A stretch of 64,000 nucleotides of DNA from positions 64,585-128,584 of the forward strand of contig CALVJR010000001.1 in NCBI GenBank assembly GCA_944332295.1, written 5' to 3'. The notes beneath the pieces are model-generated. The model was given only the letters and a program-made list of their open reading frames with translations. It did no database searches and was not told the DNA's origin. Below are positions 47,095-52,590 of the stretch, in pieces; position 1 is the first letter of the stretch; each line of letters starts with the position of its first letter. A program made the position numbers and the translations under genes. The DNA is from an uncultured Bacilli bacterium. Its GTDB lineage: Bacteria; Bacillota_I; Bacilli_A; RF39; UBA660.

Positions 47095-48015
47095 ATGAAA
47101 AAATGTATCATTATAATGAATCCAGAAAGCGGAAAAGTAAAAAGTCTTGGAAGTAAAAAAGAATTTTATGATATATTAAGAAAGCATGGATATGATGCTG
47201 AAATCAGATATACGAAAGCAAAAAAAGATGCTATCAGAATTGTAGGAGAATTAGAAGACGATGTAGACTTAGTGATTAGTGCTGGAGGAGACGGAACTTT
47301 AAATGAAGTAGTAACAGGAAATTTAAAAAGAGAAAATAAATTAACTCTAGCCAATCTACCCATGGGAACTACAAATGATGTTGCTAATATGTATGGTTAT
47401 ACCAAGAATTATCAAAAAGATTTAGAATTGTTACTAAATGGAGTAAGAAAAAAAGTAGACGTTTGTTATATTGATAACACTCCATTTGTATATGTTGCTT
47501 GTCTTGGTGACTACATAGATATGGCCTATAATACTCCTAGAGATTTAAAAAAGAAGTATGGAAAAATTGCTTATATTTTGTATGGATTAAGACAATTAAG
47601 AAATCATATTCATCGCTATCGAGTAAAATATAAAGTAGATGGAGTAGAACACGAAGGCCAGTATTCTTTCTTTTTTATCACAAACTCATCCCGCGTCGCT
47701 GGAGTAGATGATATTTATTATGATGTAAAAATGGATGATAAAATGTTTGAAGTAGCATTAGCCAATCCCAAAACTAAAGCGGATATTTTAAGAATGCTAG
47801 TTCAAGTAACCATGAAAGATGTAAAAGAAGTACCAGGGATTACTTATTATCAAACCAATGATTTTGAAATAGAATTTTTAGATAGACCAAAGACATCTTG
47901 GTGTATTGATGGAGAAGAATATACCTCTCCTAATTTAACATTTAATTTTAAAGTAGATCAAAAGATTAAAATGTTAATACCTAAAATAAATGCCAAAAAA
48001 TTATTTGAAGAATAA
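47095..48015 (+). CDS. Diacylglycerol/lipid kinase family protein (DagK/YegS-like)
   Basis: IIIMNPESG...ISAGGDGTLNEVVTG...LPMGTTNDVA motifs. ATG 47095 lies 8 nt after AAGGAG. Confidence 0.9.
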   Translation: MKKCIIIMNPESGKVKSLGSKKEFYDILRKHGYDAEIRYTKAKKDAIRIVGELEDDVDLVISAGGDGTLNEVVTGNLKRENKLTLANLPMGTTNDVANMYGYTKNYQKDLELLLNGVRKKVDVCYIDNTPFVYVACLGDYIDMAYNTPRDLKKKYGKIAYILYGLRQLRNHIHRYRVKYKVDGVEHEGQYSFFFITNSSRVAGVDDIYYDVKMDDKMFEVALANPKTKADILRMLVQVTMKDVKEVPGITYYQTNDFEIEFLDRPKTSWCIDGEEYTSPNLTFNFKVDQKIKMLIPKINAKKLFEE

Positions 48016-48025
48016 GGAGTATGAG

Positions 48026-48829
48026 ATGCCAGAAAAAAATAAAGTGCAAAGTAAAAAAGAGCGTCGTATCAATATTACAGTATATTTAGTATTAAGATTT
48101 TTAGTAATTATATGTATGGTAGAACAAGCTCTAAAAGGAAATTGGCATGCCGTTGCATTATGTTTTTTAACACTAATATTATTTACAGTTCCAACAGTAG
48201 TCTCAAAGACATTTAAAGTAAAATTACCAACCACCTTAGAAATAATAGTTTATCTTTTTATTTATGCTGCAGAAATATTAGGAGAAATTCAAAATTTTTA
48301 TGGAATATTTAAACACTGGGATACCATATTACATACACTAAATAGTTTCCTAGCAGCCGCAGTAGGTTTTTCACTAATAGATATATTAAATAGAACAGAA
48401 CGATTTCATATTAAAATGACACCAATTTTTGTTGCTTTAGTTGCATTTTGCTTTTCAATGACCATAGGTGTTCTTTGGGAATTTGGTGAATTTGCTGCTG
48501 ACAGATATTTTAGGTTAGATATGCAAAAAGACAGAGTAGTACAAAAAATATCATCAGTAAAGCTAAATAAAGAAAATAAAAATGATTCGGTAATAATAGA
48601 TAATATTAATAAAACAGAAATTTATAGTGATAACAATCAAAAAATAACCACGGTAGAAAATGGCTATCTGGATTTAGGTATCATAGACACAATGAAAGAT
48701 TTAATTGTAAACTTTGTTGGAGCCTTAGTATTCTCTATCTTAGGATTCTTATATATTAAAGATCGTGATGAATATAATTTTATAGAACGGTTTATACCAG
48801 TAATGAAAAAATTTAAAGAAGAAACTTGA
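48026..48829 (+). CDS. Polytopic membrane protein, function unknown
   Basis: About 6 TM helices. ATG 48026 lies 6 nt after AAGGAG; the tracked start 47990 lies inside the upstream gene. Confidence 0.7.
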   Translation: MPEKNKVQSKKERRINITVYLVLRFLVIICMVEQALKGNWHAVALCFLTLILFTVPTVVSKTFKVKLPTTLEIIVYLFIYAAEILGEIQNFYGIFKHWDTILHTLNSFLAAAVGFSLIDILNRTERFHIKMTPIFVALVAFCFSMTIGVLWEFGEFAADRYFRLDMQKDRVVQKISSVKLNKENKNDSVIIDNINKTEIYSDNNQKITTVENGYLDLGIIDTMKDLIVNFVGALVFSILGFLYIKDRDEYNFIERFIPVMKKFKEET

Positions 48830-48869: not shown

Positions 48870-48902
48870 TGTCGAACGAATTTTTTGTCATCATTTGTCG
48901 AA
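48870..48902 (+). promoter_or_regulatory. Two perfect Spo0A boxes (TGTCGAA) upstream of the spoIIAA-like gene
   Basis: TGTCGAA at 48870-48876 and 48896-48902 (26-bp centre-to-centre), with a half-match TGTCATC at 48886. The 0A-box consensus is TGNCGAA. Confidence 0.55.
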
Positions 48903-48954
48903 ACAGTAGAAATTAAATTAAAATTAATTTATAGTGCTATCAAGAGGTGATCTT

Positions 48955-49293
48955 ATGCTTGAAGTAACAGCACAGATAAATAGAGGAATCATGTTTATTA
49001 GATTGGAGGGAGAATTAACTGCAAATAACTTTTATAAAGTAGCAGAAGAAATTAATTACTTGTTATATAAGCAAGGAATATTAATGTATGTATTTAATTT
49101 AGGAGAAGTAAAAAAAGTAGATCAAGGACTATTAGGAATGATACAAAATAAATTAACAGAAATATTTCTACATTGTGGAAGTGTTGTATTTTGTGGATTA
49201 TCAGAAAGTTTAAAAAAGAAAATAGGGAAAAGAAAAGATCAATTATTCTATGTAAAAGAAGAAAAAGAAGTATTTCAATATATTAGTATATAA
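48955..49293 (+). CDS. STAS-domain anti-sigma-factor antagonist, SpoIIAA-like (phospho-Ser position is Gln)
   Basis: Aligns by eye along its length with B. subtilis SpoIIAA (IRL.GEL...NL....D..G). ATG 48955 follows AGAGGTGA. Confidence 0.8.
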   Translation: MLEVTAQINRGIMFIRLEGELTANNFYKVAEEINYLLYKQGILMYVFNLGEVKKVDQGLLGMIQNKLTEIFLHCGSVVFCGLSESLKKKIGKRKDQLFYVKEEKEVFQYISI

Positions 49294-49303
49294 AAGGAGG
49301 ACT

Positions 49304-49939
49304 ATGGACAACATATTGGAATATGAAAATTTGATTTATAAAATGATTAGTCAGTACAAAAGTTTTGATAAAGAAGATTTATATCAAGTCGCTATGATAG
49401 GATTAATGAAAGCAAAAAAGAATTATAAAGATAGTGAAAATACAAAATTCTCAACTTATGCCTATTATTATATTTTAGGAGAGATAAATAATTACATCAC
49501 TGCCAGTAATCCTGTAAAAGTAAGTAGAGACTTATTACGATTAAACAAAAGTCTAGAACAAGCAAAAGAAGTAATGCGGCAAAGATTAAGAAGAGAACCA
49601 ACCAGTGAAGAGTTATCCATATTTTTAGAAGAACCATTAGAAAAAATCCAAGAAGCAACCCTAGCAACTAGACAAGTGGAGAGTCTAGATTATGCCTATG
49701 AAGAAGAAAATATGGACTTATATAACAGTATAGGAACACAAGAGATGGGAATGAACGACGAGATACTAGATTTAAAAAATGCTATATCAACACTATCAAA
49801 GGAAGAACAACAGTTAATTATTGCTAGATACTTTAATGATTTAACACAACAAGAAACAAGTAAAACTTTAGGTATGAGTCAAGTACAAGTATCAAGAAAA
49901 GAAACAAAAATATTAGAGAAGTTAAAAACGACATTATAA
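49304..49939 (+). CDS. Sporulation-type sigma-70 family factor (SigF/SigG-like)
   Basis: Regions 2 (DLYQVAMIGLMKAKKNY...FSTYAYYYILGEI) and 4.2 (LTQQETSKTLGMSQVQVSRKETKILEKLK). Position between the spoIIAA-like gene and spoVAC. Confidence 0.85.
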   Translation: MDNILEYENLIYKMISQYKSFDKEDLYQVAMIGLMKAKKNYKDSENTKFSTYAYYYILGEINNYITASNPVKVSRDLLRLNKSLEQAKEVMRQRLRREPTSEELSIFLEEPLEKIQEATLATRQVESLDYAYEEENMDLYNSIGTQEMGMNDEILDLKNAISTLSKEEQQLIIARYFNDLTQQETSKTLGMSQVQVSRKETKILEKLKTTL

Positions 49940-49952
49940 CAGTCGTTTTTTT
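49925..49952 (+). terminator. Terminator overlapping the sigma-factor stop codon
   Basis: AAAACGAC-loop-GTCGTTTT hairpin followed by extra Ts. Confidence 0.65.
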
Positions 49953-49995
49953 GTATGAAATAAAAAAAATAGGTAACACTAAGAATGGTGATACT

Positions 49996-50439
49996 ATGAA
50001 AAATGAAAAATATGAATTAATTGCAAAAGACCATCAAGCACCCAATCCCAGACTAAAAAATGCAATCATTGCATTTATTGCTGGTGGCTTAATAGGTCTT
50101 TCAGGAGAAGGTATTATTGAATTACTTTGTTATTATACTCATATATCAAGAAGTAATGCAGGAACAATTATGATTGTAATTCTAATATTTGTAGCATCTC
50201 TTTCAACAGCACTCGGCTTCTTTGATAAACTGGTAACAAAATTTAAATGTGGTCTTTTAATTCCAATAACAGGCTTTGCACATTCCATGACAAGTGCAGC
50301 TTTAGATTATAGAAAAGAAGGACCAATTTATGGATTAGGTGCGAATATTTTTAAACTAGCAGGTTCTGTTATATTATATGGTATTATTGCTGCATGGTTT
50401 TTTGGAATGATTCGCTTTCTTTTAGGAGGTAAGATATGA
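49996..50439 (+). CDS. spoVAC: Stage V sporulation protein AC
   Basis: ...PNPRLKNAIIAFIAGGLIGLSGEG... with four TM segments is the SpoVAC pattern. ATG 49996 follows GGTGA. Confidence 0.9.
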   Translation: MKNEKYELIAKDHQAPNPRLKNAIIAFIAGGLIGLSGEGIIELLCYYTHISRSNAGTIMIVILIFVASLSTALGFFDKLVTKFKCGLLIPITGFAHSMTSAALDYRKEGPIYGLGANIFKLAGSVILYGIIAAWFFGMIRFLLGGKI

Positions 50440-51778: not shown

Positions 51779-51879
51779 ATTATAAAGAAATATAATATTT
51801 TAATAAATAAAGGTTGCCAAAAGCAATCTTTTATTTTATGATAAAAAAACAAGTAAGAAAGTTAGAAAGAAGAGATAAG

Positions 51880-52590
51880 ATGGATAAAATAAAACAATTT
51901 GTATATAAATATCAACAACTGACTAAAGAAGAAAAAAAACAAATAATAAAAGAAAGTAGTATTGAATTTTTAATAGCAGCTTGTAGTTACGGCAAAATGT
52001 TAGGAATAGATATGGCAAAGGAAGTAAAAGTATTACAAAATGAAATTGGAAGAGAAGTACTAGAAGACTTAGTCGCAACAGAAAAAGACGCAAAAATAGA
52101 ATTATTAAAAGCGGAAATCGAAAATATTTTAGAAAATGTAGAACTAGAGAAAGAATTATATGACTATACAGAAGAAGAACAAAAGATATTAGATGAATAT
52201 TTTGAAAAAACAAGTGATAAAGTACTAGAAAATATTTTAGAAGGAATCAGAGATAGATTACTAGTAAAGGAAAACAGACCTAGAAGAAGAATAAATCAAT
52301 TTAATGTATCATCCCCTGCAGTGGTATTCCCAGACTTACACCATTCAACATCTGAATTAAATTATTTAGAAGGGCTTTATCGTATAAAAATAACGGATTT
52401 AAACTTAGAAAAATTAGGAATTGTCGACTTGAAAATAGTAACTAGTCAAGCAAAGATAAAATCTCCATTTTATCAAATTTCGTATTCGAACCCTAACAAA
52501 ATGAAAAAGTCAAAATATTTCTGGGGAGATTATGTCCTAACCACAACATGTGATTTAGAAAAAGCAAAAAGCTTAATAAAAAAAAGGTGA
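51880..52590 (+). CDS. Hypothetical protein
   Basis: 236-aa ORF from ATG 51880 (tracked ORF begins 51814). Helical Glu/Lys-rich N-half; no recognisable family. Confidence 0.6.
   Translation: MDKIKQFVYKYQQLTKEEKKQIIKESSIEFLIAACSYGKMLGIDMAKEVKVLQNEIGREVLEDLVATEKDAKIELLKAEIENILENVELEKELYDYTEEEQKILDEYFEKTSDKVLENILEGIRDRLLVKENRPRRRINQFNVSSPAVVFPDLHHSTSELNYLEGLYRIKITDLNLEKLGIVDLKIVTSQAKIKSPFYQISYSNPNKMKKSKYFWGDYVLTTTCDLEKAKSLIKKR

Follow-up and report, generated by a model that had tools for sequence, protein, structure and literature searches.

A sigF operon in the order RF39 that keeps a SpoIIAA-like STAS gene and has lost the SpoIIAB and SpoIIE partner switch

The SpoIIAA/SpoIIAB/SpoIIE switch is the textbook link from asymmetric division to cell-specific gene expression. 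How, then, might sigma F be governed in a bacterium in which parts of this switch are missing? The question is raised by a spoIIA-type locus in a 64,000-nucleotide stretch of DNA (the window; contig CALVJR010000001.1 of assembly GCA_944332295.1, positions 64,585 to 128,584) from an uncultured Bacilli bacterium of the order RF39. An earlier note, made from the letters of the window alone, had described a SpoIIAA-like STAS gene with no space for spoIIAB between it and a sigma factor gene, and spoVAC, spoVAD and spoVAEb downstream of the latter. Both observations stand: the gap between STAS and sigma genes is 10 nucleotides, and open reading frames and family matches agree on the three spoVA genes. 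The core of the locus, in window coordinates, reads as follows.

48955-49293, + strand: STAS gene, SpoIIAA-derived, 112 amino acids, an open reading frame with a TAA stop codon
49294-49303, + strand: spacer of 10 nucleotides, read from the sequence as the AAGGAGG ribosome-binding site of the sigma gene and ACT, after which comes ATG
49304-49939, + strand: SigF-type sigma gene, 211 amino acids, divergent and N-terminally short, by family match and synteny
49996-50439, + strand: spoVAC, 140 bits
50436-51428, + strand: spoVAD, 417 bits
51428-51778, + strand: spoVAEb, 140 bits

Gene content across RF39 shows that the SpoIIAA/SpoIIAB/SpoIIE partner switch is not operating there, because kinase, phosphatase and phosphorylatable serine are missing throughout the order; what is conserved is the sigF operon, together with the region through which Spo0A controls it and the cascade that follows. 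The explanation that we favour, and consider probable on balance, is that the switch collapsed in the RF39 ancestor, that sigma F is set mainly by Spo0A-driven transcription and that the STAS protein serves as an accessory independent of phosphorylation.

The window's own assembly (1.71 Mb in 86 contigs, 92.7% complete) was searched as a whole for SpoIIAB (TIGR01925) and for the HATPase_c_2 domain (PF13581). Matches occurred solely in frames of 331-774 amino acids. These encode histidine kinases of the membrane, in which a HisKA domain is combined with HATPase_c. As a control, the SpoIIAB search detects the protein in B. subtilis and in four relatives from the same class. The SpoIIE domain (PF07228) gave no match in the genome at E<=1, and the STAS gene of the window is the only match to PF01740. 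The search was repeated over all 6,868 stop-to-stop frames with the hmmsearch filters off, using hidden Markov models built from the canonical SpoIIAA and SpoIIAB of class relatives. As candidates for a second SpoIIAA or a divergent small SpoIIAB, this six-frame search gave only the histidine kinases and the STAS gene of the window; a 16-bit match at positions 19168-19419 of contig C13 is partial and is not a STAS domain. The loss of the kinase, which the earlier note had proposed from the window, is therefore borne out for the genome, in which neither SpoIIAB nor SpoIIE was found.

The loss extends well beyond this assembly. A sample of 251 RF39 genomes was drawn evenly across 111 genera, all of them at least 90% complete and some assembled into one to four contigs. 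SpoIIAB was found in none of the 251 at E<=1e-15, and nor was the window's genome found to hold a spoIIAB elsewhere together with a second, serine-containing SpoIIAA. The SpoIIE domain was matched in three genomes, one of them strongly, and is absent from 248. The sole strong match in the order (162 bits, in a 625-amino-acid frame; genome G267, C2:142342-142917, locus L170) may reflect contamination, or else a phosphatase of SpoIIE/RsbU type that this genome has kept. An assembly gap behind the missing spoIIAB is ruled out by its absence from every genome of the sample, including those in one to four contigs. Four genomes from different families within the class (G029, G030, G033 and G038, probably of the Erysipelotrichales or related orders) keep spoIIAA, with the motif FMDSSG, followed by spoIIAB, sigF and spoVAC. 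Because SpoIIAB is missing from all sampled members of the order and the canonical arrangement is kept in these class relatives, the loss of spoIIAB dates to the stem lineage of RF39, and an assembly artefact does not account for it. Genomes in the order are small (0.6-2.1 Mb). Named relatives with the same STAS gene are metagenome assemblies of uncultured 'Tenericutes', 'Mycoplasmatota' and 'Bacilli', including two species of 'Candidatus Faecimonas', which corresponds to CAG-877 of GTDB in the order RF39 (PMC8035907); the window bacterium is close to this genus.

What remains of SpoIIAA at the locus? The STAS protein matches PF01740 with 32 bits, and its best NCBIfam match is the SpoIIAA equivalog TIGR02886, at 32.5 bits, where the cut-off of 114.75 is not reached. 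A profile of the STAS family, made from 22 members, gives a gap-free alignment of 90 residues with the SpoIIAA structures 1AUZ (B. subtilis) and 1TH8 (G. stearothermophilus), such that D57-S58-S59 of SpoIIAA falls on D56-Q57-G58 of the window protein and Ser58 on Gln57. An AlphaFold model built from the family alignment (predicted local distance difference test 88.4, predicted template modelling score 0.82) shows the topology of a STAS domain, in which helix alpha-2 has Q57 at its N-terminus. The model's top fold matches among solved structures are 1THN_B and 1TH8_B, with a template modelling (TM) score of 0.80, both of which are SpoIIAA chains from SpoIIAA-SpoIIAB complexes. The replacement of Ser58 by Gln, read by eye in the earlier note, is upheld by the rigorous alignment: profile and fold alignments to solved SpoIIAA both put Gln57 at the acceptor position, which holds neither Ser nor Thr. 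By the profile alignment, the model and the fold matches, the STAS protein of the window is a SpoIIAA descendant without the acceptor residue.

The same position was followed through 131 related loci, 41 from named genomes and 90 drawn from the order. Glu is found there in 24 loci, Asn in 20, Lys in 17, Asp in 15, Gln in 13, Leu in seven and Ile, Ser and Met in six each, with other residues in the rest, and the Asp preceding it is kept in 96. The column is under no constraint, as this mixture of residues shows. In 130 of the 131 loci the sigma gene comes directly after STAS, at a distance of -7 to +59 nucleotides, and the STAS reading frame is intact in 130, from more than 80 genera. Median ratios of nonsynonymous to synonymous substitution rates (dN/dS) over all pairs are 0.35 for STAS, 0.30 for sigF and 0.22 for spoVAD. 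As synonymous sites are near saturation in most pairs, the ratios were also taken from pairs with dS<0.6, in which the median and pooled values are 0.26 and 0.38 for STAS, 0.06 and 0.20 for sigF, and 0.04 and 0.05 for spoVAD. The STAS gene is thus under purifying selection that is several-fold weaker than that on its neighbours.

With a first STAS profile, 164 of the 251 order genomes gave a match, which is an underestimate, as an order-wide profile recovered divergent STAS genes among the apparent absences. Twenty genomes with sigF and no match to the first profile were inspected: 13 carry a divergent STAS gene directly 5' of sigF, and seven carry none. By extrapolation, roughly 90% of the sigF-bearing genomes retain STAS. 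The seven STAS-less loci (L175, L176, L178, L181, L182, L184 and L185, from G076, G077, G099, G112, G115, G144 and G147) keep sigF-spoVAC, and most have Spo0A boxes directly before sigF at the usual spacing, so that they look like clean deletions. In one case (G099), other species of the same genus keep STAS. The gene is retained but not indispensable, because several genera have deleted it and kept sigF.

It could be supposed that the STAS gene is a decaying relic without a protein function, kept for the ribosome-binding site at its 3' end and for translational coupling to sigF, with sigma F under Spo0A transcription alone. This would account for the unconstrained Ser58 position, for a dN/dS several-fold above that of the neighbours, for a SpoIIAA equivalog score of 32 bits against a cut-off of 115, and for clean deletions, with sigF and Spo0A boxes kept, in seven of the 20 sampled profile-negative genomes. 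It sits less well with a dN/dS that is well under 1, with a frame intact in all but one of the 131 loci and with a confidently predicted STAS fold; coupling by itself would not keep the protein sequence. Nor would it be expected that residues Q40, N65, K66 and E69 are conserved in the window's clade while the old phosphorylation loop drifts. On this evidence, we regard a mere relic as unlikely.

The residues just named belong to a second type of STAS protein. Among the 131 loci, 68 belong to more distant genera and retain the canonical D-x-x-G frame (Asp in 91%, Gly in 87%), while the 63 loci of the window's clade have a decayed D-x-x-G frame and new, largely invariant motifs. One motif lies at the end of alpha-1 (N34 Y35 L36 L37 Y38 x Q40 G41), the other at the end of alpha-2 (Q64 N65 K66 L67 x E69 I70 F71 L72 x C74 G75 x V77). 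Q40, N65, K66 and E69 are 87-100% conserved in the clade and appear surface-exposed. Several of the new motif residues are polar, and the topology places them at the other pole of the domain from the former phosphorylation site, a position derived from secondary structure and not from a measured surface. Cys74 and Cys80 are conserved at 92% and 90% in the clade; the former is clade-specific, the latter is the ancestral beta-4 cysteine.

Two further proposals bear on this remodelled surface. In the first, RF39 sporulates without any anti-sigma-F factor, and the STAS protein of the window's clade binds sigma F or RNA polymerase directly through the new polar surface, so that a phosphorylation switch of three proteins would have become a stoichiometric one of two; as a complete account this is possible, if doubtful. 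In the second, SpoIIAB was replaced by a non-GHKL anti-sigma-F factor encoded elsewhere, which the serine-less STAS protein would antagonize without phosphorylation, under the control of a ligand, of redox state or of abundance; phosphorylation-independent antagonists such as RsfA of M. tuberculosis act in this manner. Continued selection on STAS in spite of the lost kinase would fit such a partner, as would the newly conserved surface and the two conserved cysteines of the window's clade. However, the 131 loci show no candidate gene in linkage with the operon, nothing else points to such a factor, and the case from the cysteines is blunted by Cys74 being confined to the clade and Cys80 being present in canonical SpoIIAA too. 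A replacement of this kind seems decidedly improbable.

The sigma factor has sigma-70 regions 2, 3 and 4, and scores 156.3 bits against the NCBIfam model for SigB/F/G (TIGR02980), 148.9 against SigF (TIGR02885), 108 against SigG and 81 against SigB. All are below the cut-offs (321 bits for TIGR02885 and 234 for TIGR02980), and SigF is the best-scoring equivalog. Its synteny is that of the canonical spoIIA-spoVA loci of class relatives, with STAS 5' and spoVA 3'. In a sigma tree, SigG, SigE, SigK and SigA stand apart from RF39 and canonical SigF with support of 92/94; the other branches are unresolved, the references being too few, and so the phylogeny that the earlier note had called for separates SigF from these factors and goes no further. 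By positional orthology and by this separation from SigG, SigE and SigK, the gene can be assigned to SigF.

The earlier note had also remarked on the shortness of the sigma factor. Its 211 amino acids are correct, but the length is not special, for SigF spans 207-241 amino acids in the SpoIIAB-bearing class relatives, which rules out a short sigma factor as a distinctive trait. What distinguishes the RF39 proteins is instead a short N-terminus: 24-26 residues precede the DLxQ motif of region 2.2 in all RF39 SigF, as against 35-52 in the canonical SigF of class relatives. Region 2.1 of sigma F is one reported SpoIIAB contact site, and it may be, speculatively, that loss of the N-terminal segment goes with loss of the anti-sigma factor. 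Separately, a sigF-type gene is split over two frames in three loci, L060 (5340-6066) and L086 and L087 (about 1315-1501), where the gene has become a pseudogene by frameshift or the assembly is at fault, and in the genus of G088 a second sigma-like open reading frame lies directly 5' of the STAS gene (L123, 1253-1921).

The features around the operon that may affect its transcription are the following.

48870-48876 and 48896-48902, + strand: two TGTCGAA matches to the Spo0A box, 85 and 59 nucleotides 5' of the STAS start codon, read from the sequence
48895-48935, + strand: promoter-like hexamer pairs TTGTCG-18-TAAAAT and TAGAAA-17-TATAGT in the stretch that leads from the Spo0A boxes to the STAS start, consensus matches only
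49924-49957, + strand: weak AT-rich hairpin with a stem of 9 base pairs and a loop of 9 nucleotides, then T7, sharing sequence with the stop codon of the sigma gene (-7.9 kcal/mol, z = -1.75)

The boxes are widely conserved. At least one TGNCGAA is found within 200 nucleotides 5' in 116 of 130 loci, with clusters near -58/-60 and -85, and across the loci 162 matches are in forward and one in reverse orientation, against a background of 0.078 per 200 nucleotides. At the level of sequence, this identifies a Spo0A-dependent promoter at the operon. The hexamer pairs are not more numerous than in shuffled sequences. A stricter terminator scan of the locus called none, the hairpin at 49924-49957 included, which may act as a leaky terminator that splits sigF from spoVA.

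The window sequence is present in chicken-gut metagenomes. In a chicken-gut metatranscriptome, a contig of 386 nucleotides, about 92% identical, lies across the STAS-sigma junction, and another metatranscriptome run gave a contig of 617 nucleotides on spoVAD/AEb. These contigs are short and come from relatives that are 92-95% identical, so they lend weak support to expression of the STAS and sigma genes in a relative and are suggestive, not proof, of co-transcription.

Does the remainder of the sporulation programme persist? Spo0A, SigE with SpoIIGA, SigG, SigK, SpoIIR and SpoVA are all present in the genome of the window. SigG scores 392 bits, above its cut-off, SigE 312 and SigK 303; SpoIIGA is encoded directly 5' of sigE and YunB 3' of sigG. 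SpoIIR was also found in all 18 other genomes of the same genus that were searched. Across the order, the C-terminal domain of Spo0A is present in 244 of the 251 genomes and a SigF-type sigma factor (best E<=1e-49) in about 226. The remaining 25 or so have only SigA-level matches to the sigma profile, together with weaker Spo0A matches, and look asporogenous. Conserved forespore-type promoters of the form G[AT]ATA-N18-CAY lie 5' of spoIIR and sigG; they do not separate sigma F from sigma G.

Some details of these genes may be recorded here. The promoter region of sigG is at C2:81700-81853 and spoIIR is on C16 (L204), the promoter form being G[AT]ATA-N18-CAY(T/A)A. Across the genus, an inverted repeat CCTCTC...GAGAGG 5' of spoIIR links the -10 region and the ribosome-binding site. 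C6:2113-3036 encodes one more sigma factor of sporulation type, the fifth, with a length of about 294-308 amino acids (174 bits to SigK, 146 to SigE); its C-terminus is extended by about 80 residues rich in lysine and glutamine.

It has been predicted that RF39 is able to form spores, with different regulation (PMC10868615). In contrast, the machine-learning tool SpoMAG gives RF39 genomes a 0% sporulation probability (PMC12536801). If RF39 no longer forms endospores, the locus would be a remnant or be reused in another Spo0A-controlled programme, and loss of the switch would have no developmental consequence. The SpoMAG result, the small genomes, the roughly 25 genomes without sigF and with weaker Spo0A matches, and the lack of any described RF39 isolate or spore are all compatible with this. 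Such a history would nevertheless leave unexplained why sigF and Spo0A persist in most of the order, why SpoIIR, SpoIIGA, SigE, SigG, SigK, YunB and SpoVAC/AD/AEb are intact and purifying selection is strong, with a dN/dS of 0.04-0.22 for spoVAD, and why Spo0A boxes and forespore-type promoters are conserved; it also runs counter to the published prediction of spore formation. We consider it very unlikely. A literature search for RF39 in spore-enriched fractions found nothing relevant.

The suggestion in the earlier note that partner switching is absent or rewired thus holds, and can be refined: SpoIIE has gone as well, constraint on the STAS protein is real yet relaxed and some genera have deleted its gene. 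In the collapse of the switch, the RF39 ancestor lost the spoIIAB gene that had separated spoIIAA and sigF, and it lost spoIIE too. With kinase and phosphatase gone, the acceptor serine of the STAS protein was released from selection and drifted, to Gln in the window. The level and timing of sigma F would then be set mainly by transcription dependent on phosphorylated Spo0A (Spo0A~P), and the STAS protein, co-made with sigma F, would have been kept as a regulator that works without phosphorylation. The likeliest target of this regulator would be sigma F itself, which would make it a weak anti-sigma or holding factor; failing that, it may have another partner. The contact would lie, in the window's clade, on the new polar patch where alpha-1 and alpha-2 reach their C-termini, at a distance from the former phosphorylation loop.

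Several points weigh against this account. In the least saturated pairs, STAS has a dN/dS 4-6 times as high as sigF and spoVAD have, and its clean deletion in seven of the 20 profile-negative genomes fits a decaying relic as well as it fits an accessory factor. It is possible that a non-homologous anti-sigma factor is encoded elsewhere in the genome. The metatranscriptome contigs could derive from contaminating DNA. Lastly, sporulation is unproven, because RF39 has no cultured member, and the SpoMAG prediction speaks against it.

The neighbourhood has other features as well. The open reading frame at 47990-48829 of the window encodes a 279-amino-acid membrane protein without a Pfam or NCBIfam match, which in close relatives sits between a diacylglycerol-kinase-like gene and the STAS gene. 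That at 51814-52590, after spoVAEb, encodes a protein of 258 amino acids, again without a match in either database. In a close relative whose sigma factor is about 95% identical to that of the window (L039, 6119-9063), sigF and spoVAC are separated by genes for two surface proteins of 433 and 506 amino acids, which are paralogues, are secreted and have a C-terminal anchor, an insertion that the window does not have; similar gaps of 2-4 kb between sigF and spoVAC are found in L040, L043, L046, L047 and L058.

A whole order has dropped kinase, phosphatase and phosphorylation site, while sigma F, the route to sigma E and late sporulation genes stay under selection. Either a simpler route to forespore-specific activation of sigma F exists, or RF39 uses the sporulation cascade differently. 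Either outcome bears on the minimal sporulation programme and on the transmission of RF39, which is common in human, poultry and ruminant guts. The natural series from canonical loci through kinase-less loci with STAS to STAS-less loci makes the question directly testable.

The finding was partly anticipated. One sentence of a survey in Microbial Genomics in 2024 states that spoIIAB and spoIIE are reduced or absent in RF39 (PMC10868615), so that absence at the gene level is already published. The survey deals only with presence and absence of KEGG orthologues and does not say that the STAS-sigF pair is retained, that the serine is lost, that the Spo0A boxes are conserved, that STAS has been lost secondarily or that its surface is remodelled; on the first four of these, a literature search found no paper. 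The locus is a variant of a known system.

Compared with the canonical spoIIA operon of Bacillus subtilis, G. stearothermophilus and clostridia, it is alike in its Spo0A boxes 5' and spoVA genes 3', in the SpoIIAA fold (TM 0.80), in the SigF-type sigma factor and in the accompanying SpoIIR, SpoIIGA, SigE, SigG and SigK. It differs in having neither the SpoIIAB anti-sigma kinase nor the SpoIIE phosphatase, in a Ser58 position that is Gln in the window and is free to vary across the order, in a sigma factor without about 10-28 N-terminal residues, and in scores far under the equivalog cut-offs for both proteins.

RsfA of M. tuberculosis is a STAS-fold antagonist in the sigma-F pathway that has no phospho-serine and no kinase cycle and acts on the GHKL-type UsfX. 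The STAS protein of RF39 resembles it in lacking the phospho-serine, but RsfA has a GHKL-type anti-sigma target and RF39 has none such. A further comparison is with the four class relatives, which share with RF39 their AT-rich, reduced genomes (one of 0.9 Mb), the downstream spoVAC and a SigF of similar length, and which differ in the FMDSSG of their SpoIIAA and in the SpoIIAB of 143-149 amino acids encoded between the two genes.

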